Positions 7,603 through 41,801 of a stretch of 64,000 nt of DNA are shown one piece after another. Origin of the DNA: Alphaproteobacteria bacterium (GTDB lineage Bacteria > Pseudomonadota > Alphaproteobacteria > UBA6615); the NCBI GenBank assembly GCA_965205535.1, contig CBDBHH010000005.1, positions 266,712-330,711 on the forward strand, written 5' to 3'. Made by a program: the position numbers and the translations under genes. The notes beneath the pieces are model-generated. The model made no database searches. It saw only the letters and a program-made list of their open reading frames with translations, and was not told where the DNA came from. Numbering within the stretch: the first letter of the stretch is position 1; each line of letters opens with the position of its first letter.

Positions 7603-8280
7603 ATGCTGGAGCCGATAACCCAGCGGAGATGTCGGGTGCGAATTTTGTCGAGATTTCTGGGCGTCCTGGCGCTTGTGTCCGGACTTTTCCTGTCCGGCGG
7701 ACATGTCGTCGCGCATCCCCATGTCTGGATCGAGCTCGAAACCCGCCCGGTGATGGATTCCGACGGCCGGGTCGAGGGCCTTGAGGTGTATTGGCAGTTC
7801 GACCCTTTCTATACCGTCTTCGCCGTCGACGACATGCGCACCGACGATGGCGGCATCGACGAGGAGAAGCTCCTCGCGCTCGGGCGTTCGAACCTCGAAA
7901 ATCTGCGGCCGTTCGACTATTTCACCGACCTTCGCTTCAATGGCGGCAAACTCGAGATCGCCACCGTCGACCGGTTCGAGACCGGGTTCGAGGCGGGCAA
8001 GCTGTGGATGCGCTTCATCATCCCGCTGGCCACGCCGATCGATCCGCGGGCCGGAAGCTTCTCTTATGCGGTCTTCGACCCGACCTATTACATCGACATT
8101 TCCTATGCCGAGCCGGACCATGCCCGCCTCGACAACGCGAACGGCTGCCGCGCCGACGTCGAAGAGGCCGCGCCGACATTCGAGGCCATCAGCCTGGCCC
8201 AGGCGCTCGACCAGAACACAACCGGCCCGGACACCCTGGGTGAGATGTTCGCCCAGCGCGTTCGCCTGGAATGCAGCTAG
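7603..8280 (+). CDS. DUF1007-family periplasmic protein (partner of the nickel/cobalt transporter)
   Basis: 225 aa with an N-terminal signal/anchor and HPHVWIE motif; it overlaps the downstream transporter gene by 10 nt, the usual DUF1007-NicO pairing. Confidence 0.6.
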   Translation: MLEPITQRRCRVRILSRFLGVLALVSGLFLSGGHVVAHPHVWIELETRPVMDSDGRVEGLEVYWQFDPFYTVFAVDDMRTDDGGIDEEKLLALGRSNLENLRPFDYFTDLRFNGGKLEIATVDRFETGFEAGKLWMRFIIPLATPIDPRAGSFSYAVFDPTYYIDISYAEPDHARLDNANGCRADVEEAAPTFEAISLAQALDQNTTGPDTLGEMFAQRVRLECS

Positions 8281-9227: not shown

Positions 9228-10519
9228 CGCGAAAACGCCGCCACCAGTTCCACATGCCCCGACCAGACGAACTGGTCGACCGGCGTGACCCGCTCCAGGG
9301 AAAAGCCACCCTCGGCCAGGGTCAGCGCGTCGCGGGCGAAGGTCGTGGGATTGCACGACACGGCGACGACCCGTGACGCATCGCTCTGGGCGATTTCCCC
9401 GGCCTGGGCCGCCGCCCCGGCGCGAGGCGGGTCAAACACAATCGTCTCGATACGCCTGAAGTCCGCCGCCGCCATCGGCTGGCGTACCAGGTCACGCGTC
9501 TCGGCCGTCACCTGGCCACCGAACCCCGCAGTCCCGGCAGCACGGGCCAACGCCGCGATGGCAGCACTGTCCCCATCCACGGCCATGACCGACGCCCCTG
9601 CCGCGGCCAGCGGCAGGGCAAAGGTCCCCACCCCGCAATAGAGATCGGCCACCCGCGCGCCTTCAGTCGACTCAACCACCAGCCCCGCCAGCACCCGTTC
9701 GGCCTCCGCGCTGGCCTGCAGGAATACCCCCGGCGGGATTTCGACGGGGATGCCGGAGAGTTCCAGCACCGGTGTGCGATGCAACGCGACCGGTTCGATT
9801 TCGTCCCGGCCGCTGCCTTCCAGCTGCCAGGCGACCCGGGCCAGCCCCTTCGCGTCGGCGAACATGGCCAGCGCCATGCTCGCGTCCGGTCCCGGTTCGT
9901 GGGCGGCCACGATCAGCACGTCGAAGCCGTTGTCGGCGCGTGTCACCGAGACATCCCAACGCGCGCCCGGCGGCACGATATCGGCCAGCACCTCGCGCAG
10001 CTTCGGCACCAGCGCCATCAGTTCAGGATGCACGATCAGGCATTCTTCCAGCTCCACCACATGACGGCTCGCGCGGGTGTGGAACCCGAAGAAGGTCTTC
10101 GAATTTTTCGCACGTGGCCGGAACGCGGCGAAGGTCGCGCGGCGGCGCCCGGCGCTCTCGGTCGGGATCAGAGGCGCGACCAGTTCGGGGTCGAGCCCCA
10201 CCCGCTGTATGGCATTGGTCACCAGTTCGCGCTTCCAGGCGTGATAAGCGTCCATCCCGAGATGCTGGACACTGCAACCACCGCAGGTCGCAAAGTGCCG
10301 GCACGGCGGTGCGGTTCTGTCGTCTGACGGCGCCACGATCTCCAGCAGCTTTGCCTCGAGCCCGTCGCCGCGCTTGTTGATGGCGCGCACCCGCACCTGC
10401 TCACCCGGCAGCGCGCCGGCGATATACAGGCGCCCCCGCTCCCGGCCGCCCGGGTTCTTCGCGATCCCGTCGCCGCGCGGACCGAGGGCCTCGACTTCGA
10501 CCGTCACCTCATCCGTCAT
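9224..10519 (-). CDS. rlmD: 23S rRNA (uracil-C5)-methyltransferase, RumA/RlmD family
   Basis: N-terminal TRAM-like region, Cys cluster (CRHFATCGGCSVQH), C-terminal SAM-MTase motifs (DLYCGVGTF, DPPRAG, SCNP). Confidence 0.75.
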   Translation of the reverse strand: MTDEVTVEVEALGPRGDGIAKNPGGRERGRLYIAGALPGEQVRVRAINKRGDGLEAKLLEIVAPSDDRTAPPCRHFATCGGCSVQHLGMDAYHAWKRELVTNAIQRVGLDPELVAPLIPTESAGRRRATFAAFRPRAKNSKTFFGFHTRASRHVVELEECLIVHPELMALVPKLREVLADIVPPGARWDVSVTRADNGFDVLIVAAHEPGPDASMALAMFADAKGLARVAWQLEGSGRDEIEPVALHRTPVLELSGIPVEIPPGVFLQASAEAERVLAGLVVESTEGARVADLYCGVGTFALPLAAAGASVMAVDGDSAAIAALARAAGTAGFGGQVTAETRDLVRQPMAAADFRRIETIVFDPPRAGAAAQAGEIAQSDASRVVAVSCNPTTFARDALTLAEGGFSLERVTPVDQFVWSGHVELVAAFSR

Positions 10520-25497: not shown

Positions 25498-28400
25498 ATG
25501 AACCTGATCTCCGCGTCAATTCACCGTCCGATCGCGGTCATCGCGGTCGTCATTATGATCATCATGTTCGGCTGGGTGGCGCTGCAGCGCATCCCCATCC
25601 AGCTGGCACCGGACGTGCGACAGCCGGTGATCATCGTCGACACCTTCTGGCCAGGTGCGTCGCCGCTCGAGGTCGAGCGCGAGATCGTCAACCGCCAGGA
25701 AGAAGTCCTCAAGGGAATCGAGGGCGTGCGCAAGATCGAGAGCCGCGCGCGCACCGGCCGCTCGGATATCACACTTGAATTCGCGCCGAGCCAGAACATG
25801 GACCGTGCGCTTTTGCTGGTGGCAAATCGGCTCGACCGGGTCAGCGGATATCCCGAGGAAACCGACGAACCGACCCTGCGCACGTCGGGCACCGACGACA
25901 ATCCGATCGCCTGGTTCGTTTTGCGCCGACAGGCCGAGAACGACCGGGATCTGCTCACATACGGCGATTTCCTCGAGGACGTGGTCCAGGAGAGGATCGA
26001 GCGCATCCCGGGAATCTCCGGCGTCAACATATTCGGTGAGACCGAACGCGAGATGCGGATCATCATCGATCCCGAACAACTCGCCCAGTTCCGCCTGACC
26101 ATCGGCGACGTCGTCGAGCGGCTGCGCGCCGAGAACGCGTCGATCTCCGGCGGTGACGTCGAGGAAGGCAAGCGCGCCTACGTGGTGCGTACCGAAGGCG
26201 ATTTCACCACGCCCGATCAGGTCCTCGATGTTGTTCTGCGCTCGGATGCCGGCCGCGCGGACGGTCAGATCGGCCGCATCACGCTGCGCGACATCGCCCA
26301 GGTCGAACTCGGCTACAAGGAAGCGCGCGCGCTGCCCCACAGGTTCGATGAGCGCGCCATGGCGTTCAACATGACCCGCGAGCAGGGCGCCAACGTCCTG
26401 GCGGTGATGGACCAGGTGCATCGTGTTGTCGGAGACCTCGCGGAAGGGCCACTCAACCGGGTTGGCCTGATCGTCGAGAACGTGTTCGACGAGACCCTGT
26501 ATGTGAATTCGGCCATCTCTTTGGTGCAGCAGAATATCATCGTCGGCGGCATCCTCGCCGCCCTCATCCTGATGCTGTTCCTGCGATCATGGCGCCCGAC
26601 CCTCGTCGTTTCCCTGGCGATCCCGGTCTCGGTGATCGGTTCCTTCGTGGCCATGGCAGCACTCGGTCGTTCTCTCAATGTCATCAGCCTGGCGGGGATC
26701 GCCTTCGCGGTCGGTATGGTTGTCGACGCCGCCATCGTCGTGCTCGAGAATATCTTTCGGCTTCGCCAGGAGGGTCATTCTCGTGCGGAAGCCGCACGAA
26801 TGGGCGCATCGCAAGTCTGGCCGGCCGTGCTCGTATCGTCCCTGACCACCGTGATGGTGTTCATCCCGATCCTGGTCATGGAGCTTGAAGCCGGGCAGTT
26901 GTTCCGGGATATCGCTGTCGCGATCTCGGTCTCCGTCCTCCTGTCGTTGCTGGTCTCCGTGACGGTAATCCCGGCCCTCGCCAACCGTCTGCTGGTGAAC
27001 AGCGTGGCGGAAGGCAAAAAGACAAAACGCATACCCGTCGTCGATGACTTCGCCCACGCTTTCGTGAACTTCTGGCAGGATTTCACCCGAATGGTCGTGC
27101 GATCGAAATTGCGTGCGCTCGTCGTTGTCGGCGCCATCACGCTCGCATCGGGCGCGTTTACCCTGGCCTTCGCCCCCAAACTCGATTACCTGCCGACCGG
27201 TAACCGCAACTTCGTGTTCGGTTTCGTGAACGTACCGCCGGGATACAATCTCGACACCGTCACCGAGATCACCGAGCGGATCGCGAACCGAACCCGCAAC
27301 TTGTGGGCGTCGGAGACCGGACCGGAGTCCGAGGCCGGTGAACCGCCCAAGTTCCAGCGCTTCATCCGCGTGCCGTTCGCCGGCCGCGCCTTTATTGGCG
27401 GCACGTCGGTCGATCCGAGCCGTGCCGCCGAGTTGATCCCGGTCCTGCAGAACGCAGGGCGACAGGACCCCGGCGTTCTCACCTTCCCGAGCCAGCCATC
27501 GCTGTTCGGCCGTTCACTGGGCAGCGGCCGCACCATCGACGTCGATATCCGCGGATCGGACCTCGAACAGATCTACCAGGTCGCCTTCGATGTCTTTATC
27601 CGTCTCGCACCACGCTTCCCCTTCAGCGAAGGAAACCAGGTCCGGCCCATCCCGAGCCTGACCTTGTCGGCACCCGAAGTCCGGGTCGAGCCCAACCGCC
27701 TGCAACTCGCAGACAACGGCTTGTCGGCCCGCGCGCTCGGCCAGGCCGTCGACGCTTTCAACGACGGCCTGCGGGTCGCCGAAATAACAGTCGATGGCAA
27801 ACGGATCGACCTGACGCTAACCGGACCACCGAACATCATCGATCAAACCCAGGGGATCGGCTCTCTGCCGGTCGTGACCCGCGATGGGCGCATCGTGCCG
27901 GTCGAGGGGCTTGCAGATGTGAAAATCACCTCCGGCCCGACCGAGGTCAGGCGCGCCGACCGCGCCCGCACCGTGCGGCTACAGGTTCGTCCGAACGCAG
28001 ATACACCGTTGCAGAGCGCGTTCGAGCTGATTCAGGACGAAATCGTCAAACCCGTCGAAGAAGCGGGCCTGCCCGAGGGTGTCAGCATCCGGCTGACCGG
28101 GACCGCCGACAAGCTGCTGGAAACCTGGAACGAGCTGGTCATCGATCTGATTCTGGCGATCGTGATCGTCTATCTGGTGATGGCCGTTCTGTTCGAGAGC
28201 TTCATCTACCCGCTGATCATCATGCTCACCGTCCCCGTCGCCGCGGCGGGCGGCATTGCCGGGTTGGCGCTTTTGAACATCTGGGTCCTGCAGCCGCTCG
28301 ATATGCTGACCATGCTCGGATTTGTCATCCTGACCGGCATCGTCGTGAACAACGCGATTCTTCTGGTCCACCAGACCCTCTATCACATCCGCGAAGATGG

Positions 28401-28680
28401 CATGAGTGCGGATGATGCGATCATGCTGGCGACCCAGAACCGTGTCCGGCCGATCTTCATGTCGACCCTTACATCGGTGTTCGGCATGCTGCCGCTTGTC
28501 GTATTCCCCGGCGCAGGTTCGGAGCTCTATCGCGGCCTGGGGTCCGTCGTGCTGGGTGGCCTGTCATTGTCGGCCGTCCTTACCCTGGCGATCGTGCCGC
28601 CGATGATGTCGATTACCGTTGGCTGGCGCGAACGCCATCGAAACGATCAGGCGGACGCGAGCCCGACACCCGCATCATAG
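25498..28680 (+). CDS. RND multidrug efflux transporter permease (AcrB/HAE1 family)
   Basis: 1060 aa with 12 TM helices and two large periplasmic loops; the N-terminus MNLISASIHRPIAVIAVV... is typical of AcrB-like pumps. Confidence 0.9.
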   Translation: MNLISASIHRPIAVIAVVIMIIMFGWVALQRIPIQLAPDVRQPVIIVDTFWPGASPLEVEREIVNRQEEVLKGIEGVRKIESRARTGRSDITLEFAPSQNMDRALLLVANRLDRVSGYPEETDEPTLRTSGTDDNPIAWFVLRRQAENDRDLLTYGDFLEDVVQERIERIPGISGVNIFGETEREMRIIIDPEQLAQFRLTIGDVVERLRAENASISGGDVEEGKRAYVVRTEGDFTTPDQVLDVVLRSDAGRADGQIGRITLRDIAQVELGYKEARALPHRFDERAMAFNMTREQGANVLAVMDQVHRVVGDLAEGPLNRVGLIVENVFDETLYVNSAISLVQQNIIVGGILAALILMLFLRSWRPTLVVSLAIPVSVIGSFVAMAALGRSLNVISLAGIAFAVGMVVDAAIVVLENIFRLRQEGHSRAEAARMGASQVWPAVLVSSLTTVMVFIPILVMELEAGQLFRDIAVAISVSVLLSLLVSVTVIPALANRLLVNSVAEGKKTKRIPVVDDFAHAFVNFWQDFTRMVVRSKLRALVVVGAITLASGAFTLAFAPKLDYLPTGNRNFVFGFVNVPPGYNLDTVTEITERIANRTRNLWASETGPESEAGEPPKFQRFIRVPFAGRAFIGGTSVDPSRAAELIPVLQNAGRQDPGVLTFPSQPSLFGRSLGSGRTIDVDIRGSDLEQIYQVAFDVFIRLAPRFPFSEGNQVRPIPSLTLSAPEVRVEPNRLQLADNGLSARALGQAVDAFNDGLRVAEITVDGKRIDLTLTGPPNIIDQTQGIGSLPVVTRDGRIVPVEGLADVKITSGPTEVRRADRARTVRLQVRPNADTPLQSAFELIQDEIVKPVEEAGLPEGVSIRLTGTADKLLETWNELVIDLILAIVIVYLVMAVLFESFIYPLIIMLTVPVAAAGGIAGLALLNIWVLQPLDMLTMLGFVILTGIVVNNAILLVHQTLYHIREDGMSADDAIMLATQNRVRPIFMSTLTSVFGMLPLVVFPGAGSELYRGLGSVVLGGLSLSAVLTLAIVPPMMSITVGWRERHRNDQADASPTPAS

Positions 28681-28725: not shown

Positions 28726-29424
28726 ATGACCGGATCCGGAAACAGCCTCGCAGACATCCCGTTCCTCGAACCGCTGAACGAGTCTTCGCGCACCGCACTT
28801 GAACAACGTGCGCGCTGGGTCCGCTATACGTCCAACGACACGATCATCGACCGCGAGAGCGAATCCCGGGACGTGTTTTTCGTCGTGGAAGGCCGGGTAA
28901 GGGTCGTGAATTTTTCGATTTCAGGACGTGAGATCAGCTTCGACGAAATGGAGCCCGGCGGCGTGTTCGGCGAGCTCGCCGCGCTTGATGGCATGCCCCG
29001 CTCGGCCGCCGTCGTCGCCCTGACCGACACCCTTGTCGCGTCAATTTCACCGGACACGTTCCTGAATTTGCTGCGCGATCATCCCGACCTGGCCATTGGT
29101 GTGATGCAGGAACTGGCCAAGATCGTGCGTACGTCGACAGAGCGCATCATGGGTCTGTCCACGCTTGGCGCTCTCAACCGGGTGCACTCGGAAATCCTGC
29201 GGGAAGCGCGCGCCCATGCCGAGGACGGCGCCAACACGGCGCGCATATCACCGATCCCGGTCCACGCCGATATCGCTGCACGGGTCAGTACGACGCGTGA
29301 AACGGTCGCACGGGTCTTGAGCGATCTCACCAAGCAGGGCCTGGTCAAACGGGAAAAAGACGCCCTTGCCATTCTCGACCTCGAGCGGCTCGAGGACCTT
29401 GTTGAGGAAGTGCGGGACTTCTAA
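28726..29424 (+). CDS. Crp/Fnr-family transcriptional regulator (cNMP-binding domain plus C-terminal HTH; no FNR cysteine cluster)
   Basis: cNMP-binding segment FFVVEGRVRV...GGVFGELAALDGMPRSA and HTH RETVARVLSDLTKQGLV; sits 45 bp after the RND gene. Confidence 0.8.
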   Translation: MTGSGNSLADIPFLEPLNESSRTALEQRARWVRYTSNDTIIDRESESRDVFFVVEGRVRVVNFSISGREISFDEMEPGGVFGELAALDGMPRSAAVVALTDTLVASISPDTFLNLLRDHPDLAIGVMQELAKIVRTSTERIMGLSTLGALNRVHSEILREARAHAEDGANTARISPIPVHADIAARVSTTRETVARVLSDLTKQGLVKREKDALAILDLERLEDLVEEVRDF

Positions 29425-29464: not shown

Positions 29465-29480
29465 TGTGATGCCCGTCACT
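29465..29480. promoter_or_regulatory. CRP-like box TGTGA-tgcccg-TCACT
   Basis: Seen directly 40 bp after the Crp gene stop, overlapping the start of small ORF 29466..29648; same consensus as the tandem boxes at 33826-33856. Confidence 0.4.
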
Positions 29481-29698
29481 GGGGAATACACAGGGGCGCA
29501 TTACATTGGTGTCATCGGCGACGGATCATCGCCGCACACCAACGGTACGGAGCTGAACATGTCACGACAAACCCGCATCAACGTCGCCGCTTTCTTTCTG
29601 GCAGCCCCGATGGTGATCGTCGGGGTTTCGATGACACCAGGCTTTTAGTTTCCACAGGTGTGATCTTTTCGCACTGATCCAACCTCCTCCTGGACTTG

Positions 29699-29737
29699 CG
29701 GCCGGCTCTCTTGAGACCGGCCGCCTTTCTTTTCCAA
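29699..29737 (+). terminator. putative intrinsic terminator (gcggccgg-ctctcttgaga-ccggccgc followed by a T-rich run)
   Basis: 8-bp perfect GC stem followed by ctttcttttcc on the plus strand. Confidence 0.5.
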
Positions 29738-29767: not shown

Positions 29768-31226
29768 TCAGAACGTCCAGCGTCGGTTGAGCCCGATCGA
29801 AAGCCTGTAGTTGTTGTAGGTGTAGTTACGACACCTGCCGATACGCTTCGCCGCCGAATGTGAATGTAAACGGTGTCCAGAACTCCCCGGCATTGGTGAA
29901 AATGCCCGACCAGGGGATGCCATAAGTCATCCGGACACGTCCGCCCCAGTCATGGCGGGTTTGGGCGCTGATCGATGGATCCCGGTCGTCGTAGCGATCA
30001 TTGTTGACGGTCAATGATGTCAGCAAAAAATCGCCGCCGCCGAACAACAGCGTGTGGCTTAAGCCGATCTCCATTCCATCGTAAGAATTGTAGCTGCGAG
30101 ACGCGATATTGCGGGTCTGGGTATATGTGACACGCAGGCGCTGACGTGGGGTCAGAATCTGCGAGGTTCCAACTTCGATCTCATACTCACGCCCGCTACG
30201 TTCCGTGGCCGTCAGGCTGCTCGTGATGTTGTTGTAGGACTGATATTTCATTGTCCCGCCGGCAAAAACCGACCAGGTGTTGGAAAGCGCATAGACCCAA
30301 TCAACAGTGGCACCCGCTGCCGTGAGATACTTCTCGCGCGACAAGTCGATGCGCTCATAGAGAAGACGCGGCGTTATTGTCGACGGTGCAAAATCAAGCT
30401 CGTACCCGAAATCGGCGGTGATGGCACGCAGGTCCAGGTCATCCTGCTGGATCTGTTCTCCCTGGTAGAAAACCAGCCCACCAAGCATCTTGTGCTGTTT
30501 CTGCAGTCCGAGGTCATGCTCAAAGGAAATCTGAGCCAAACCATTCAAGGCCATATCATCCTGGCGCGCGGAACTGCCGGTCGTTCGTGTCGGCAAATCA
30601 GCGGCGAGGCGGAGCTCGGACTTCGGTGACGCGTTGCGGTTCCAGTCATACTGGGTGGCGAAATTCATCGCGAAAGTGAAGATCGTCCGCTTGCGACGTG
30701 ACGCAATTTGGTCGAGATACTGGTCGATCTGGCGCCGCAGCTCAGGTGCCAGGTCCAGTTCCTGCAAGGAAACCAGTTCACGCTCGGCCTCATCGAGGTT
30801 GTCGAGACGGAAAAGGACGATTGCGAATAAAACCCGCACCACGGCCAGGTCGGGACGGATCAGGAGAATACGTTCCAGCGTCGCGCCCGCGCCACGCACA
30901 TTGCCATCACGAATTTGGGTCAGCGCATATCGAACGTTGAGTTCAATATTGTCGGGGTCTTCAAGCACCTGTTCGAATGTTACGGGCGGCCCCTTGCTGA
31001 AGGCCTCCAGGTCAAGTGCGTCCTGGGCTGTTCGCTCAACATCACGCTGAGTCTCGATCGATTCACGTACATCGGTTTCACGGGATTCCGTGTCCGACTG
31101 CTGGGCATGCGCAGGCACCGCGATTACGATCGCTCCGGCGATCACCAACCCATAGCGAAAACCGCACCGCACACGCCCATGCGCGCGCAATAGAGAACTC
31201 GGCACTCGAACCAACGAAACCCCCAA
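29768..31226 (-). pseudogene. outer-membrane protein with N-terminal TPR-like region and C-terminal beta-barrel (DUF560/Slam-like architecture); apparent frameshift near 29826-29832
   Basis: 466 aa ORF 31226..29826 has a signal peptide (AIVIAVPAHA) and a TPR-like helical region, then a strand-like sequence. The last beta-strand with terminal aromatic residue (...NYTYNNYRLSIGLNRRWTF*) is in the +1 frame immediately after the annotated stop. Confidence 0.5.
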
Positions 31227-31297: not shown

Positions 31298-33559
31298 TCA
31301 TTTCATTTCCTCAACGTGGATGCCTTTCCAGTCCTCCGGCGGCGGATCGAAGGAATAGTGGAAAATGCGCTCGGCGTAGAGCTCGTAGAACGCCTCGATG
31401 GCACCAGGCATTTCGACACAGAGGTTGAGTGCATCCTGGGCGCTGTCCCAGTCGCGAGCGCGATAAGCCTCCAGCATCCGCGCATGCTCACGCCGCAGGG
31501 CCTGGAAATCCTCGCTCACCGCCATAGGCGCATCACCCAACAATGCGTAAATACGAACCGCCTCTCGCTTGCCTTTCACGGCAATCCTGTCGAGCTCAAG
31601 GAAAGCGAAGTCGTCAGCCACCTGACTTTGCGTCGATTCACCCACAATGATGGGCACCCCATATGGCCGCGACTGGCCTTCGAGCCGGGCGGCGAGATTG
31701 ACCGCGTCACCCAACACCGAATAGTCAAACCGCTGGTCCGATCCCATGTTCCCGACGACACACTCGCCTGTGTTGAGACCAACCCCGACGGCTATGGCGA
31801 CTGCGTCCGGGTTCTCCGCCAGGCGCGAATCATTGACCTGCTCGAGCGCGCGCAGCATGGCCAGTGCGGCGTCACAGGCATGGGCAGCATGGGCCGGATC
31901 ATCGATCGGGGCGTTCCAGAACGCCATGATGCAATCGCCCATATACTTGTCGATGGTTCCGTCACGCTCCAGAATTTCAGCGGTCAGCGGCGTCAACAGG
32001 CGATTGATCAAGGTGGTCAGCGCCTGCGGATCATCGCGATGTTCTTCGGAAATGGATGTGAACCCGCGAATGTCGCAAAACAGCAGGGTCATCTCCCGCG
32101 TCTCGCCACCCAGCCTGAGCCGCTCGGGCTGGTCGGCAAGCTGTTCAACCAGTGCCGGCGACAGATATTGCCCGAAGGCCGTACGAATCTGGCGACGCTG
32201 GGTTTCCGATTGCAGATACGTGATCAGCGAGCTCGATAAATAGACCACCAGCACGACCAGCGCCGGGAAGACCGGGTCGATCAGAACGCCCACGCTCGTG
32301 AATGCAAACCACCCTGCTGCCACACCCGCTGTAATGGCGATCAGGCACACGATGGCGCTCGCGGTAACACCAAGTCGCGGCAGCAAAAGCACCAGAAAAA
32401 TTCCCAGCAGCGCGAACGCCGCGAGTTCCGCCCCCAATGTCCAGTCCGGGCGCGTCAGAAAACTTCCATTGAGAATCTGCTCCACGAGTTCGGCATGCAC
32501 TTCGACCCCGGGAATGATCGAGTTCAGCGGGGTCGCGCGAAGATCGAACAACCCCGGCGCGCTTGTCCCGACAAGTATGATCGCTCCCTCGATACCGTCA
32601 TCGGCCTTGATGGGTTCGGTGTCAGACCAGAGGCGCCATGCCGGTACATATCGTGCAGCTTCATGGCCGGTATAGCGCAACCACACATGGCCATCGCCGC
32701 TTGTCGGCACCCGCAAATTTCCGATCCGGATATCGGCGATACCCGAACTGTCGTCGACACCACCCTCACCGCTCGCGTCTGACATACGGATATTAAATCC
32801 CTGCGCGCCCTGTGCCACACGAAGCGCCTCGGCCCCGAGCGTCGGGTATAGGGGTGGCAGCTTGAACGGATCGTCATAGGCAGGCGTCGTTCCCGGCGCC
32901 ACATACTGTGTGAACAGTGGCACCCTGCGTATTAGCCCGTCCGCGTCGGCCTCGAAATTTATGTTGCCAACGCCCGAAGCTGCGGCCCCAAGCGCCGGCA
33001 AATTCGCGATCGCAGCGCCGTAGGCCGGCAAAAATGGATGCGGCGGGGATCCGCCGAGCCCGACACCGGCCTTCGGTGCGGGCGGCGGGGCGGTCTCGCG
33101 TGAGCGCGTAAACGCGAACCCGGCGACCACCCGCCCGCGCGCGAAGGCTTCTGCCAGGAGTTGGTCATGGTCGGGCAGTGCGGAGATCCGGGCGCGCAGG
33201 TCTGCATCATCCGGCCCGTCGGGCCAATCCGCGATGACGTTGGACGGCGATGTCCGGTCCGGCTCGGCAAACAACACATCGAATACGACCACCGCAGCCC
33301 CCTGCTCGTGCAGCCTGTCCACCAGCTCGGCGATCCGGGAGCGCGGCCAGGGCCATTGCCCGATTCGTGCCAGGCTTTCATCGTCGATATCCAGGATACG
33401 TACCGGCAGGCCGCTGTCATAAACCCGTGGCTCAATCCGCTGGTAGGTGTCGAAGGTCCACAATCTGGCCAGCTCAACAGGCTGCGGGTCCTCGACGCGC
33501 AGCAACAGCGCGAAGACGAGGATCAGGAGAGGAATGATACGGGCTTTCCAAGTGGTCAT
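31298..33559 (-). CDS. class III adenylate/guanylate cyclase with N-terminal CHASE2 extracytoplasmic sensor domain
   Basis: 753 aa with an N-terminal TM segment, a large periplasmic region and three further TM segments. C-terminal cyclase homology domain (LLFCDIRGFTSISE ... YMGDCIMAFWNAP ... GDAVNLAARLEG). Confidence 0.85.
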   Translation of the reverse strand: MTTWKARIIPLLILVFALLLRVEDPQPVELARLWTFDTYQRIEPRVYDSGLPVRILDIDDESLARIGQWPWPRSRIAELVDRLHEQGAAVVVFDVLFAEPDRTSPSNVIADWPDGPDDADLRARISALPDHDQLLAEAFARGRVVAGFAFTRSRETAPPPAPKAGVGLGGSPPHPFLPAYGAAIANLPALGAAASGVGNINFEADADGLIRRVPLFTQYVAPGTTPAYDDPFKLPPLYPTLGAEALRVAQGAQGFNIRMSDASGEGGVDDSSGIADIRIGNLRVPTSGDGHVWLRYTGHEAARYVPAWRLWSDTEPIKADDGIEGAIILVGTSAPGLFDLRATPLNSIIPGVEVHAELVEQILNGSFLTRPDWTLGAELAAFALLGIFLVLLLPRLGVTASAIVCLIAITAGVAAGWFAFTSVGVLIDPVFPALVVLVVYLSSSLITYLQSETQRRQIRTAFGQYLSPALVEQLADQPERLRLGGETREMTLLFCDIRGFTSISEEHRDDPQALTTLINRLLTPLTAEILERDGTIDKYMGDCIMAFWNAPIDDPAHAAHACDAALAMLRALEQVNDSRLAENPDAVAIAVGVGLNTGECVVGNMGSDQRFDYSVLGDAVNLAARLEGQSRPYGVPIIVGESTQSQVADDFAFLELDRIAVKGKREAVRIYALLGDAPMAVSEDFQALRREHARMLEAYRARDWDSAQDALNLCVEMPGAIEAFYELYAERIFHYSFDPPPEDWKGIHVEEMK

Positions 33560-33825
33560 CCCTGCAATCTAGCCCAGTGCGCGATTCCGGAGAACGCCGG
33601 CGCGCTTGCATCTAAAGCGCGACGGACGCGAAGGAGATCACCCCGAGCGCGAGAAAGGATGCCGCGCCCCACCGCAGATACATGCGCAAGACAGTGCGGC
33701 TTGCATAGTTTCCGAAAATTCCGTTGCTCGCCAGATGGCGCATATGCGCGGGTCGCCGGGTCATGAGGTCGGTCCGGTTGCTGTTGAAATCCACGCACAA
33801 AGTGCCGTGCGATCGGCTTCGTGTC

Positions 33826-33856
33826 TGTGACGCCCGTCACTGTGACCCCCGTCACT
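33826..33856. promoter_or_regulatory. two tandem CRP-like boxes (TGTGA-cgcccg-TCACT / TGTGA-cccccg-TCACT) sharing one T
   Basis: Seen directly in the 528-bp divergent intergenic region between the CHASE2 cyclase (minus) and the FecR-domain gene (plus); each is a perfect GTGAC...GTCAC palindrome. Confidence 0.45.
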
Positions 33857-34086
33857 TCCCAGGCCGGCAATCATCGCTAGGTTTGGCTCACAACAACGAA
33901 TGGGAAACATGATGATGATCGCGCAACACAACTCACTGAAGCTGATCGGGCACGGCACCCTGATTGTGACCGGCATGCTGACAGGCGGTGTTGGCGCCGC
34001 CGTAATTGTCCTCTTTGCCGCCGCCACGGGAATTTAGGTGCGAGAACGCCTTTTCGACGCTATCTGAACAACTTAGGATATCCGCC

Positions 34087-35721
34087 ATGTTCAATCGCTC
34101 TGCCACTCTCTTCACCGTCGTCACGATCGCCATGACATCTGCCCCGGTTGCACATGGCCAGGGGACCGCCGCACGCGCCGGCGTGGCCGCCGCCGTGCGG
34201 GGCGATGTGGTTTTGATTGCCGCCGCACCACGCCAGGACATCCGGGCGGTCGGCGAGAACGTGCAGAGCGGCGATCCTGTTTTTCTCGGAGATACCATCG
34301 AGACAGGTCCGGATTCAGGCCTCCAGATCATGCTGATGGACGAAACAATTTTCACGATCGGCCCGGACGCGGCCTTGATCATCGACGAGTTTGTCTATGA
34401 TCCCGAAACCAGCGCCGGGAAAGTCACCGCATCGGTTCTGAAGGGCGCCTTCCGTTTTGTCTCCGGTCGCGTCGCCAAGGAAGAGCCGCGCAACATGAAC
34501 GTGAAGACCCCCGTTGGGACGATCGGCATTCGCGGCACATCGACCGCGGGACGCGTCATTCCGGCGAACCCGAACGACCCCAACAGCGAAATCTCGGCCG
34601 ATATCGTGCTGCTCGGGCCGGGCGCCGATAACAATGCAAATGAGCGCGCCGGTCGAATCATCGTCTCCAATGCAGACACGTCGGTTGAAATTTCACGTTC
34701 GGGCTTCGGCACGAACATCGCCGGGATCGATGCAGCACCGACCATTCCCGTGCGGTTTGAGCCATCTGTTGTGTCCGGTCTGACTGGTGACCTCGGTACG
34801 GATGGCGGTGCACGTCCGGCATCCCGACCCGCGGCCGGCCCCGACGCGCAGAACGGCAATGATCAATCAGGCGGCAGCGACGGCAATCCACCCAACAGCG
34901 ACACAGGCGCAAACAACGGCGACGGTTCGACGGCGGCCCGCCCCGCAGGACCTGCAGCACCCGCGGGACAAAACTCCAACGATGCAGGCGTGTCCGGGCC
35001 TGCCGGCGGCGCGGCAAGCAGCCCCGTCATCCCCCGCGGCCCGGCTCCCGGAAGCGCCGTAGCCGCGGGTCCGGTAGCGGGAGGCGGCATCAACCTCGGA
35101 CAGGTGAACGCATTGTCGGGTCAGACGATTGGCGCCAGCGTCGTCAATGCCGGGGTCCTGAACCAGCTTGGCGCCAATCAGAATCAGGCCCAGCAGTTGC
35201 TGCTGGCTGCGGTCGAAGAGGGTGCCGGGTCGTTCAATAATGCGGTCACGACATTCTCACAGCTGCAGTCCATAGAGACGGGTAAAGCGAGCTATGATTT
35301 CGGCACGATCAATCTCAGCTATGTCAGCGGGGCGCACCAAAACAGCGGTGGCAGCTACAACGCATCTGCCTTGATCGATTTCGGTGCGCGCACGATTGAC
35401 CTCACGGTGGCGAATGTCAGCTACTTCTTCAACGGCGGTACAGGGCGGCTGTTCGTGTTCAAGGACGACGGTGGCAGCGGCCCAACCGACGGAACATTTG
35501 ACGGTGACAACGGCCCGGTAAAGAACACCTGGGACTCATCCGTCGACACGACCAACTTCCCGACGGCGCCCACAGACGGGGCCACCGCAAAGGTGACCGC
35601 AACGATCCTGAACAACACCGAGACGGGCGTGATCGCCGGCGCCGGACGGATCAATGTGCGGATCGAGGAAAATGGCGGCAACACCGTGAGCGCCGGCGGA
35701 AAAACGGTCGCGAGGCAATAA
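34087..35721 (+). CDS. secreted FecR-domain protein with Gly/Pro/Ala-rich low-complexity linker and a C-terminal domain of unknown function
   Basis: The start was chosen at MFNRSATLFTVVTIAMTSAPVAHG (signal peptide, AGGA ribosome-binding site). FecR-like region DVVLIAAAPRQDIRAVGENVQSGDPVFLGDTIETGPDSGLQIMLMDETIFTIGPDAALIIDEF. FecR-domain genes commonly neighbour CHASE2 sensor genes. Confidence 0.65.
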   Translation: MFNRSATLFTVVTIAMTSAPVAHGQGTAARAGVAAAVRGDVVLIAAAPRQDIRAVGENVQSGDPVFLGDTIETGPDSGLQIMLMDETIFTIGPDAALIIDEFVYDPETSAGKVTASVLKGAFRFVSGRVAKEEPRNMNVKTPVGTIGIRGTSTAGRVIPANPNDPNSEISADIVLLGPGADNNANERAGRIIVSNADTSVEISRSGFGTNIAGIDAAPTIPVRFEPSVVSGLTGDLGTDGGARPASRPAAGPDAQNGNDQSGGSDGNPPNSDTGANNGDGSTAARPAGPAAPAGQNSNDAGVSGPAGGAASSPVIPRGPAPGSAVAAGPVAGGGINLGQVNALSGQTIGASVVNAGVLNQLGANQNQAQQLLLAAVEEGAGSFNNAVTTFSQLQSIETGKASYDFGTINLSYVSGAHQNSGGSYNASALIDFGARTIDLTVANVSYFFNGGTGRLFVFKDDGGSGPTDGTFDGDNGPVKNTWDSSVDTTNFPTAPTDGATAKVTATILNNTETGVIAGAGRINVRIEENGGNTVSAGGKTVARQ

Positions 35722-35743: not shown

Positions 35744-36505
35744 TCAATCGGGCTTCAAAACCCCCAAGACCTCGGGGGCCGCCCCGGTCAGCATCCGCAG
35801 ATCCGATGTCGGCGTCACCAGGTCGAACCCGTCCGCGATCATTTGTGCCGAATAGTCGGTTCGGGTGGCGTGGACACCGGCGCGTATACCTGCCGCGTGG
35901 GCACCCTCTCTGATCTGTGCGATCAGATCCGCCACAGGTCCTTCGAAATTGTCATGCTTGGGCGGATGCCCGTGAGAAAACGCCAGATCCGTCGGCCCGA
36001 TATAAACCGCGTCGAGCCCGGGCGTTTCGGCGATTTCCGCAAGGTTCGCCACGCCCTCACGGGTCTCGATCATCGCGAAGGTCAGGATCTCCTCGTTCGC
36101 ATGCTCCAGGTAATCCGCCCCGCCATAGATCGAGCCACGGTACGCACCGTTCGAGCGATAGCCGTCCGGCGGATACCGGCATGCGCCGACAAAGCGCTCC
36201 GCGTCATCCCGGTTGTTGATCATCGGGCAGATGATGCCGTAGGCACCCGCGTCCAGACACCGCATGATGACCGAGGGTTCGTTCCAGGGGACCCGGATGA
36301 TGGGAACCGCATTGCCGGCCGACATGGCCTGAAGCATCGGGATCGCGTCCGGGACATCAATCGGTCCATGCTGCAGATCGATGGTCAGCCCGTCCCAGCC
36401 CTGATGGGACATCACTTCCGCCACATAGGGGCTCGGCACCGAGATCCAGCCATTCACGGCAGGACGACCGGTGGTCCATAGTTCACGTAGACGATTTTTG
36501 CGCAT
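35744..36505 (-). CDS. HpcH/HpaI-family aldolase
   Basis: 253 aa with class II aldolase motifs (IDLQHGPID, MIETREGVANLAEIAETPGLDAVYIGPTDL). Confidence 0.75.
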   Translation of the reverse strand: MRKNRLRELWTTGRPAVNGWISVPSPYVAEVMSHQGWDGLTIDLQHGPIDVPDAIPMLQAMSAGNAVPIIRVPWNEPSVIMRCLDAGAYGIICPMINNRDDAERFVGACRYPPDGYRSNGAYRGSIYGGADYLEHANEEILTFAMIETREGVANLAEIAETPGLDAVYIGPTDLAFSHGHPPKHDNFEGPVADLIAQIREGAHAAGIRAGVHATRTDYSAQMIADGFDLVTPTSDLRMLTGAAPEVLGVLKPD

Positions 36506-40595: not shown

Positions 40596-41801
40596 CTACT
40601 TCACGCGCTCGAGTACGGTCGCGATGCCCTGACCGACACCGATGCACATGGTGCAGAGCGCGTACCTGGCATCGCGATCCTTGAGCTCGTAGGCCGCCGT
40701 GGTCGCCAGACGCGCACCGCTCGCCCCGAGCGGATGGCCGATCGAAATGGCACCGCCATTGGGATTCACATGCTCGGCATCATCGGCGAGCCCAAGATCG
40801 CGGGTCACCGCGAGCGCCTGCGCGGCGAAGGCCTCGTTCAGCTCGATCACATCGATATCGCCAATCTTTAGACCGAGGCGCTCCAGCAGCTTGTGGGTGG
40901 CCGGTGCCGGCCCAAATCCCATGATCCGCGGCGGAACACCTGCGGTCGCCGTTCCCACAACGCGCGCGATGGGCGTGAGGCCGTATTTTTCAACGGCTTC
41001 TTCCGACGCGATGATCATGGCGCAAGCACCATCATTCACACCCGACGCGTTGCCCGCCGTGACGGTCCCGCCTTCGCGGAACGGCGTCGGCAGCTTTTCC
41101 AGGCCCGCCATATCCGTGCCGGGTCGCGGGTGTTCATCCGTATCGACCACCACCGGGTCGCCGCGGCGCTGCGGCACCTCGACGGACACGATCTCCTGCG
41201 CGAAGCGTCCGCGCTCCTGGGCCGCTTTCGTGCGCTGCTGCGAGCGGAAGGCCAGCGCATCCTGGTCGGCGCGCGACACCTGGAATTCCTCGGCCACGTT
41301 CTCCGCCGTCTCGGGCATCGCATCGATGCCGTACTCGGCCTTCATCTTCGGATTAACGAAACGCCAGCCGATGGTCGTGTCTTCGACCTGACTGGCGCGT
41401 GAGAATGCACTGGTCGCCTTCGGCATCACGAAAGGCGCGCGCGACATGCTCTCCACGCCGCCGGCGACAATCAGATCGGCCTCGCCGGTGCGAATTGCGC
41501 GGGACGCGGCCGTCAGCGCCTCGAGGCCGGAGCCGCAAAGCCGGTTCACGGTCGCGCCCGGAACGTCGGATGAATATCCCGCCAGCAACAGGGACATCCG
41601 CGCGACATTGCGGTTGTCCTCGCCCGCCTGGTTGACGTTGCCGTAATAAACCTCGTCGACCTTGTCCCAGTCGACGCCGGGGTTTCGGTCCACCAGCGCC
41701 TTCATGGGAATCGCGCCCAGATCATCCGTCCTTACGCTCGACAAGGAACCGCCATAGCATCCGAATGGTGTGCGAACCGCGTCACAGATATAGGCTTCGG
41801 G
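40596..41801 (-). CDS. acetyl-CoA C-acyltransferase / beta-ketothiolase
   Basis: Thiolase active-site regions (NRLCGSGLEA, GAISIGHPLGASGAR, CIGVGQG). The start was set at MPEAYICDAVRTPFG (ATG 41801), preceded by AGGAGAGAAATA. Confidence 0.85.
   Translation of the reverse strand, partial: PEAYICDAVRTPFGCYGGSLSSVRTDDLGAIPMKALVDRNPGVDWDKVDEVYYGNVNQAGEDNRNVARMSLLLAGYSSDVPGATVNRLCGSGLEALTAASRAIRTGEADLIVAGGVESMSRAPFVMPKATSAFSRASQVEDTTIGWRFVNPKMKAEYGIDAMPETAENVAEEFQVSRADQDALAFRSQQRTKAAQERGRFAQEIVSVEVPQRRGDPVVVDTDEHPRPGTDMAGLEKLPTPFREGGTVTAGNASGVNDGACAMIIASEEAVEKYGLTPIARVVGTATAGVPPRIMGFGPAPATHKLLERLGLKIGDIDVIELNEAFAAQALAVTRDLGLADDAEHVNPNGGAISIGHPLGASGARLATTAAYELKDRDARYALCTMCIGVGQGIATVLERVK

Follow-up and report, generated by a model that had tools for sequence, protein, structure and literature searches.

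How many promoters are served, and by which protein, when two palindromic operator-like sequences abut so closely that they share a base? This question is raised by positions 33826-33856 of a 64,000-nucleotide stretch of alphaproteobacterial DNA (contig CBDBHH010000005.1, positions 266,712 to 330,711; hereafter the window), where two boxes of the type bound by CRP, the receptor protein for cyclic AMP (cAMP), lie between divergently oriented genes. An initial annotation of the sequence had assigned them to a divergent promoter region, as CRP-type operators of a Crp-like protein encoded nearby. All computational tests available supported this proposal. We consider it reasonably likely that these two boxes and a third one are sites for the cyclic-nucleotide-bound dimer of a Crp-family regulator encoded at 28726-29424, and that each supports class II activation of one promoter lacking a -35 hexamer.

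Three CRP-type boxes in one gene cluster

Box 1 (TGTGACGCCCGTCACT, 33826-33841, centre 33833.5) and box 2 (TGTGACCCCCGTCACT, 33841-33856, centre 33848.5) are both CRP-type sites, and the plus strand across them reads TGTGACGCCCGTCAC-T-GTGACCCCCGTCACT. The annotated arrangement of two adjoining perfect palindromes with one common base was borne out by the sequence: both GTGAC-N4-GTCAC 14-mers (33827-33840 and 33842-33855) are perfect, the centre-to-centre distance is 15 bp, and T33841 both ends the 16-mer of box 1 and opens that of box 2. Tandem Repeats Finder reports the pair as a 15-bp unit in 2.1 copies with a 94% match. Each box is able to form a 5-bp stem, and the inner TCACTGTGA, which spans the junction, is itself palindromic. 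The proposed match to the half-sites of Escherichia coli CRP also held, with agreement at 9 of the 10 positions of the CRP core TGTGA-N6-TCACA in box 1, in box 2 and likewise in box 3.

The perfect GTGAC-N4-GTCAC palindrome occurs twice in the 64-kb window, both times in the box pair, compared with 0.02 occurrences expected from dinucleotide-preserving shuffles, indicating that the pair did not arise by chance. The exact sequence TGTGA-N6-TCAC was found three times, at box 1, box 2 and positions 29465-29479, all inside one gene cluster. When one mismatch to TGTGA-N6-TCACA was allowed, the number of matches in the window was at chance level (14 seen, 10.2 expected). Box 3 (TGTGATGCCCGTCACT, 29465-29480) came up under this setting, and another of the looser matches lies at 41771. 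Box 3 is a single CRP-type site that follows the crp-like gene at a distance of 40 bp and precedes sm1, a small hydrophobic open reading frame (ORF).

The crp-like gene (28726-29424, plus strand) encodes a protein of 232 amino acids with Pfam matches to cNMP_binding and HTH_Crp_2, which is the presumed binder of the boxes. Its best solved relatives are 4byy/4cyd/3r6s and 3mzh/3d0s, followed by Sinorhizobium meliloti Clr (7pza) and E. coli CAP (E values 1e-19 to 5e-14); 4CYD and 3MZH are the CRPs of Corynebacterium glutamicum and Mycobacterium tuberculosis, respectively (PMC10127613). The regulator is about 25% identical to E. coli CRP and scores 68.8 bits against an NCBIfam CRP cut-off of 266, indicating that it is a distinct Crp-family member rather than an orthologue of E. 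coli CRP. In the recognition helix, VSTTRETVARV, which corresponds in alignment to CSRETVGRI of E. coli CRP, equivalents of R180, E181 and R185 are all present. The RETVAR helix thus retains the three CRP residues that read TGTGA, and it is identical in orthologues of 58-97% identity. According to PMC10127613, RE(T/M)VGR is the mark of the main Crp cluster, and Clr, which has a different motif, is without the Glu. Also conserved are the residues of the phosphate-binding cassette that contact cAMP (Glu, Arg and Ser). At the positions of H19 and H21, which are AR2 residues in E. coli, the regulator has R and V, a comparison that is uninformative at 25% identity.

Relatives were gathered by scanning genomes and metagenomes with the cyclase of the cluster and by looking up Crp homologues; the FecR-domain protein was too diverged to be of use as a tblastn anchor. 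The host lineage is marine and Rhodospirillaceae-like and is known only from metagenome bins, its closest relative being JABJEK010000070 from Saanich Inlet (cyclase 96% identical). The tandem boxes are present in eight distinct lineages (the window, L001, L081, L082/L087, L083, L084/L085, L088 and L090), one lineage (L096) has a single box at the divergent region, and the crp-proximal region was compared in 15 lineages. In the conserved order, acrB and crp are followed by box 3 and sm1; next come omp, the cyclase gene and the small ORF sm3, which run leftward from boxes 1 and 2, then the small ORF sm2 and fecR, which run rightward from them, and finally hpcH. Synteny of the cassette is retained in L082-L087, L090 and L096.

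Conservation in the syntenic intergenic regions of relatives, which the initial annotation had proposed as a check, took the form of a completely identical island of half-sites within diverged flanks. When the eight lineages were anchored on the boxes, pairwise identity was 100% in the half-sites, 73% in the N6 spacers and 53-62% in the flanks. In the intergenic alignment (A3), TGTCTGTGA-N6-TCACTGTGA-N6-TCACTTCC is invariant and all substitutions fall within the two N6 spacers, which in L090 differ considerably (TGACGG and CTCCCG). Despite this divergence of the spacers, the 15-bp offset and the common base are strictly conserved in the eight lineages. Positions 6 and 11 vary among the relatives (C/T and G/A) without compensation, box 1 having C..A in L081, L083 and L084 and T..A in L082. 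Because these positions vary while TGTGA and TCAC are invariant, the conserved unit is TGTGA-N6-TCAC(T) and not GTGAC-N4-GTCAC; the perfect 5+5 palindrome that had been annotated is a property of the window but not of the conserved unit.

Three other identities were considered for the boxes and rejected. A Clr-type GTNNC-N4-GNNAC as the conserved unit does not fit the variable C6 and G11, and the regulator has the CRP-type Glu. The consensus of FNR has a TTGAT-N4-ATCAA core, and the boxes read TGTGA...TCAC, which disfavours an FNR/FixK box. A structured RNA or terminator at the boxes was dismissed in view of an unremarkable fold (z = -1.5), no Rfam match at E values up to 1 and the uncompensated changes at positions 6 and 11.

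In 15 of 15 lineages, one box of the 16-mer type seen in the pair is located downstream of the crp orthologue; in the relatives it is followed by a hydrophobic ORF of 29-32 codons and a hairpin. Box 3 and crp are kept together in L092 (a 4.3-Mb chromosome), where the cyclase cassette is absent between crp and hpcH, and in L094 and L095 despite an entirely different downstream context. That box 3 travels with crp even without the cassette is the strongest argument that the Crp-like regulator reads the boxes. Distant CHASE2 cyclases were rejected as box carriers: among 78 loci (L002-L080, 44-53% identity), hardly any GTGA-N6-TCAC was found near the cyclase, and most of the loci have no adjoining crp gene. 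These results indicate that the boxes belong to the crp-linked cassette of one lineage rather than to CHASE2 cyclases generally. One distant CHASE2 locus, L050, carries GTGAGCCCTGTCAC and GTGAGCCTGGTCAC 23 bp apart (7651-7687), between an omp-like gene and the cyclase upstream region; no crp gene was detected near this pair of GTGAG..GTCAC sites, which may be due to chance.

Promoter geometry and alternative explanations

At exactly 21 nt past the 16-mer there is a YANNYT hexamer, a form that is nearly absent at the other 49 offsets tested. It was found at this distance rightward of box 3 in 15 of 15 lineages (TACATT, TAAGTT, TATCTT or CATCTT), rightward of box 2 in 9 of 9 (TAGGTT, TAGATT or TAAGTT) and leftward of box 1 in 7 of 8 (CACTTT, CAATTT or CAGGTT), the remaining lineage, L090, having TATACT at 20 nt. 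The 21 nt between box 3 and its hexamer are themselves not conserved. Measured from the centre of the site to the first base of the -10 hexamer, 21 nt from the box edge corresponds to 29.5 bp, which would place the site at -41.5. This is one of the two centre positions, -41.5 and -61.5, from which CRP activates (PMC6050953, PMC10127613). The fixed 29.5-bp spacing therefore puts each box at the class II position of its own predicted promoter.

For box 1, the predicted leftward promoter has the -10-like hexamer CACTTT (33799-33804, minus strand) and a start near 33792, 28 nt before the sm3 ATG. For box 2, the predicted rightward promoter has TAGGTT (33878-33883, plus strand), in a block conserved in A3, and a start near 33890, 19 nt before the sm2 ATG. 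The predicted sm1 promoter has TACATT (29502-29507, plus strand), with the centre of box 3 at about -41.5. A consensus scan found no sigma-70 promoter with a -35 hexamer in the box-pair region or the box 3 region. Such a lack is expected of activator-dependent promoters, and we take it as consistent with activation rather than as evidence in itself. The geometry also accounts for the 15-bp offset and the shared base, since two divergent class II promoters packed back to back would leave no spare DNA between them. We favour this compact packing, which would be a simpler reason for the offset than cooperative or exclusive binding.

Natural variants are informative about the relation between boxes and genes. 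In L096 (Crp 82% identical), the cyclase gene, sm2 and fecR are kept, the intergenic region is about 150 bp shorter, and sm3 and box 1 are both gone; the sole box at the divergent region aligns with box 2 and lies 21 nt before TAGATT. In L098, omp and the cyclase gene are present without fecR, sm2 or sm3, and no boxes are found upstream of the cyclase. In L091, an insertion sequence replaces the CHASE2 half and the intergenic region, and box 3 is kept. Box number follows the number of small-ORF-led transcription units.

In the mechanism that we propose, the CHASE2, FecR and TPR/outer-membrane components would sense some input, upon which the cyclase would make cAMP. The Crp-family dimer with bound cAMP would occupy the three boxes and recruit RNA polymerase to the three promoters without -35 hexamers. 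Box 2 would thereby drive transcription of sm2 and the FecR-domain gene, box 1 that of sm3, the CHASE2 cyclase gene and the TPR/outer-membrane gene, and box 3 that of sm1. As a consequence, cAMP would switch on the operon of the cyclase itself together with that of its FecR partner, forming a positive feedback loop.

Several points weigh against this mechanism. The lineages are few and related, so that the conservation counts do not represent independent events. The leftward CACTTT is a poor -10 hexamer with a weaker consensus match than the rightward one, and its counterpart in L090 is shifted by one base. Dimers 15 bp apart would have overlapping footprints, and it is doubtful that both promoters are active on one DNA molecule. 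The offset corresponds to about 154 degrees around the helix, which would place the two dimers on nearly opposite faces. The alpha C-terminal domain of E. coli RNA polymerase binds just upstream of a class II site; because the other box occupies that position here, simultaneous firing of both promoters on one template may be impossible. In addition, a TAGATT-N6-ATG sequence at the cyclase start suggests that the cyclase has a promoter of its own, which would weaken the argument for feedback, and a second Crp/Fnr paralogue elsewhere in the genome is possible as the true binder.

Instead of serving two promoters separately, the boxes could act as one unit whose cooperative, mutually exclusive or concentration-dependent occupation gives a dose-dependent or toggle response to cAMP. 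We regard this as somewhat unlikely. The unit would agree with the strict conservation of the offset and common base in eight lineages whose spacers have diverged, and overlapping footprints are to be expected of CRP sites, which are known to extend over 22 bp. Joint action would have a precedent in M. tuberculosis, where the whiB1 promoter is reported to carry an activating and a repressing Crp site at a distance of about 21 bp. Another may be the SMc05008 promoter, where three overlapping candidate Clr sites are described and differential binding is speculated on (PMC10127613). However, each box is paired with a separate -10-like hexamer at class II distance, the two hexamers lying in opposite directions; L096, with one box, is without exactly the leftward unit; and box 3 is a single site in 15 lineages. 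Joint action would be compatible with class II activation at each box as an added layer. A more specific version, in which Crp-cAMP and polymerase occupy either the cyclase-side or the FecR-side promoter but never both, setting the ratio of cyclase and omp to FecR, and in which sm1-sm3 are undescribed subunits or modulators of CHASE2 signalling, appears unlikely.

It is improbable that the boxes are repression operators, through which the cyclic-nucleotide-bound regulator would block two constitutive divergent promoters and exert negative feedback on the cyclase. The cyaA gene of E. coli is negatively controlled by cAMP-CRP, and a protein bound at the boxes, which cover the -35 position of both predicted promoters, could keep polymerase out. 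Without recognisable -35 hexamers, however, these promoters are unlikely to be strong in the absence of an activator, and an exact -41.5 geometry at three promoters, in up to 15 lineages, is a signature of class II activation. In S. meliloti, the analogue Clr activates its FecR-domain target (PMC5498481). We consider it highly improbable that the boxes are read by another binder, whether a different Crp/Fnr paralogue or an unrelated regulator of TGTGA/TCAC half-sites or of the inner palindrome TCAC-T-GTGA. The window brings 64 kb of the genome into view and alphaproteobacteria often have several Crp/Fnr paralogues, and the palindromic nature of the junction would suit a regulator of the inner sequence. 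On the other hand, a single 16-mer box without the inner palindrome goes with crp in all 15 lineages, including the different context of L095, and the recognition helix is as invariant as the half-sites, which are those expected for an R-E-x-x-x-R helix. That the pair has no regulatory function, being a chance 15-bp tandem duplication or a pair of hairpins (a terminator or recombination site), is scarcely credible: the repeat structure and the possible 5-bp stems would be accounted for, but not half-sites that are 100% identical within flanks at 53-62%, and the predicted starts leave the boxes untranscribed.

Comparison with characterised cAMP systems

The window resembles the class II CRP promoters of E. 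coli, as described by the Busby and Ebright model that PMC6050953 and PMC10127613 cite. Shared features are the 16-bp TGTGA-N6-TCAC(A) core, a regulator with cyclic-nucleotide-binding and helix-turn-helix domains and an R-E-x-x-x-R helix, a site centre 29.5 bp from the -10-like hexamer, and the lack of a -35 hexamer. The right half-site differs, being TCACT here and TCACA in E. coli. The window also differs in having two abutting sites with one common base pair that face opposite predicted promoters.

The closest functional analogue is the clr-cyaD1 module of S. meliloti (Tian 2012; Zou 2017, PMC5498481; Werel 2023, PMC10127613). It consists of clr, cyaD1 (CHASE2), smc02177 (FecR domain) and smc02178, and Clr-cAMP activates the FecR-domain and TPR genes via Clr boxes (PMC5498481). 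As in the window, a crp-like gene adjoins genes for a CHASE2 adenylate cyclase and a FecR-domain protein, a regulator box lies at the FecR-domain gene, and TPR and outer-membrane proteins belong to the pathway. The two regulators differ in DNA recognition. Clr, without an E181 equivalent, is described as reading GTNNCNNNNGNNAC / TGTT-N8-AACA, whereas the regulator in the window has RETVAR and the half-site TGTGA. The window boxes do fit the Clr core GTNNCNNNNGNNAC (GTGAC-NNNN-GTCAC), but C6/G11 are replaced by T/A in several relatives. The extended Clr consensus, HGTYHCNNNNGRWACA / TGTT-N8-AACA (PMC5498481, PMC10127613), does not match, position 4 being G rather than Y and the half-site TGTGA rather than TGTT. 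Protein identity between the regulator and Clr is low (E = 1.8e-18). The available text on the S. meliloti module mentions neither abutting sites nor small membrane ORFs, and S. meliloti is a symbiont whereas the host here is marine and free-living.

Clusters of a CHASE2 cyclase with FecR and TPR proteins are also present in Campylobacterota (PMC9239204). The genes for all three adjoin in the window, each with its Pfam match, which makes this locus a CHASE2-FecR-TPR cluster. The Campylobacterota clusters have the same three-protein core plus a phosphodiesterase, with no Crp sites described (PMC9239204). By comparison, the cluster in the window is inserted beside crp and is split into two divergent predicted operons with CRP-type boxes between them, each operon having a small membrane ORF as its first gene. 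More than one CRP site, with separate roles, is found between divergent genes at E. coli fucPIK/fucAO (PMC11011485) and Vibrio cholerae rtxHCA/rtxBDE (PMC6050953); these regions differ from the window in that co-regulators (FucR) or repression are involved. In open-access text, we found looser arrangements only, no example of 15-bp spacing with a common base pair, and no description of abutting CRP sites that share a base pair and serve opposite class II promoters.

Taken with these systems, the boxes would be canonical CRP-type operators through which an uncharacterised Crp-family regulator acts, most likely with one box for each operon, in a cAMP cluster of a known type. This is tidy and fairly ordinary gene regulation, and current understanding of CRP is not changed by it. 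What is unusual is the very compact two-promoter layout and the presence of three unannotated small membrane ORFs as first genes. The analysis yields a predicted and well-supported motif, TGTGA-N6-TCAC(T), together with three predicted direct target promoters, for a regulator found widely among uncultured marine Rhodospirillaceae-like alphaproteobacteria. It also outlines a putative self-contained cAMP circuit, composed of the regulator, the CHASE2 cyclase, its FecR partner, the TPR/outer-membrane protein and three small membrane peptides, in which the cyclase operon is apparently controlled by its own product. CHASE2-FecR-TPR modules are common, but little is understood of their signals (e.g. 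a plant signal in S. meliloti) or their wiring. New candidate components of such modules are the conserved small ORFs, often overlooked by gene callers, with which the predicted Crp-dependent transcripts begin. The abutting sites offer a compact setting in which to ask whether 31 bp of activator-binding DNA can be shared by two class II promoters.

Small ORFs and plasticity of the cassette

Two divergent small ORFs flank the box pair and leave a gap of about 145 bp, in which the pair is about 62 bp from sm3 and 52 nt from sm2. The latter distance agrees with the initial annotation, which had placed the pair about 55 bp upstream of a small hydrophobic ORF at 33909-34037. The distance of about 270 bp given for the divergent cyclase gene was also accurate (267 bp to the ATG at 33559), but this gene is not the nearest one on the leftward side; sm3, which had been overlooked, lies in between. 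The sm2 ORF (33909-34037, plus strand) is a membrane ORF of 42 codons and the first gene rightward of the boxes. It has a conserved GGAG-type ribosome-binding site and is called as a 42-amino-acid gene in L090 and L096. The sm3 ORF (33612-33764, minus strand), the first gene leftward, is a membrane ORF of 50 codons (MTRRPAHMRHLASNGIFGNYASRTVLRMYLRWGAASFLALGVISFASVAL). Its start, stop and length (46-50 amino acids) are retained in the eight lineages with 54-82% amino acid identity and at 61-63 bp from box 1, and a homologue is visible in L090.

Downstream of box 3, sm1 (29559-29648, plus strand) is a hydrophobic ORF of 29 codons (MSRQTRINVAAFFLAAPMVIVGVSMTPGF). Every lineage examined has it next to crp, with or without the cyclase cassette and down to a Crp identity of 58% (L095), and it is called as a gene in L090, L091 and L094-L097. 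All three predicted Crp-dependent transcripts thus open with a small single-helix membrane ORF (29 codons in sm1, 50 in sm3 and 42 in sm2), and none of the three has a match in Pfam or NCBIfam. After sm1, a GC-rich hairpin with a T-rich tail (29698-29735, plus strand), read from the sequence, is a probable terminator that is also conserved in L019 and L090/L091. It was not reported by a consensus terminator scan, probably because of a bulge in the stem. Another conserved hairpin, GGCGACGGATCATCGCC (29517-29533), lies a few bases past the predicted sm1 start, is kept in L019, L082-L086, L090 and L091, and is possibly a 5' stabilising stem-loop. In L093, about 300 bp between crp and the box (9700-10010) are called as an ORF of 141 amino acids with no Pfam match, and the box, a -10-like hexamer and an sm1-like ORF are intact beyond this stretch.

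The cyclase gene (31298-33559, minus strand) has Pfam matches to CHASE2 and Guanylate_cyc; its product, a class III nucleotidyl cyclase, is predicted to act as an adenylate cyclase. The protein has a Lys in KYMGDCIM and a Ser in YSVLGD; in class III cyclases such residues point to ATP as the substrate, which is probably the case here. Just upstream of its ATG at 33559, CACTGGGCTAGATTGCAGG (33560-33579, minus strand) is nearly invariant in all relatives, including L090 and L096, where the surroundings have diverged. It includes TAGATT (33571-33566, minus strand), in the form TAGATT-N6-ATG, like a -10 hexamer placed for a leaderless cyclase mRNA. There is no CRP box at class II distance from this hexamer, which may belong to a second, Crp-independent cyclase promoter.

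The last gene of the predicted leftward operon, omp (29826-31226, minus strand; Pfam TPR_19 and SlipAM), encodes a TPR/SlipAM-like, probably outer-membrane, protein. On the rightward side, the gene for the FecR-domain protein (34087-35721, plus strand; Pfam FecR), which has an N-terminal signal-like sequence, begins with an ATG at 34087, 49 nt downstream of sm2. The cluster is bordered by the gene of an AcrB-type pump (25498-28680, plus strand) and that of an HpcH aldolase (35744-36505, minus strand), both identified by Pfam. The 49-nt gap between the sm2 stop and the fecR ATG (34040-34086) is conserved above the flanking coding sequence (AACGYCTTTTC ... CYGAACAAYTTAGGAT in A3) and measures 212 bp in L090; part of it is probably a ribosome-binding site (AGGA), and the remainder could contain an internal promoter or act as regulatory RNA. 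In L001 and L081-L087, whose cyclase, omp, crp and hpcH products are 86-97% identical, identity of the FecR-domain protein is no more than 49-60%, and L090 has two FecR-domain genes in tandem. This divergence and duplication indicate that the presumed sensory partner evolves quickly or is exchanged.

From the sm1 terminator to hpcH, the cassette shows high plasticity among the relatives and behaves as an accessory island beside the core crp gene. It is absent in L092, L094 and L095, and in L093 it is replaced by a different cyclase (Guanylate_cyc and TPR) adjoining hpcH. In L001, a deletion or misassembly fuses cyclase residue 616 to crp residue 202, and in L019 unrelated DNA takes the place of fecR and the N-terminal half of the cyclase.

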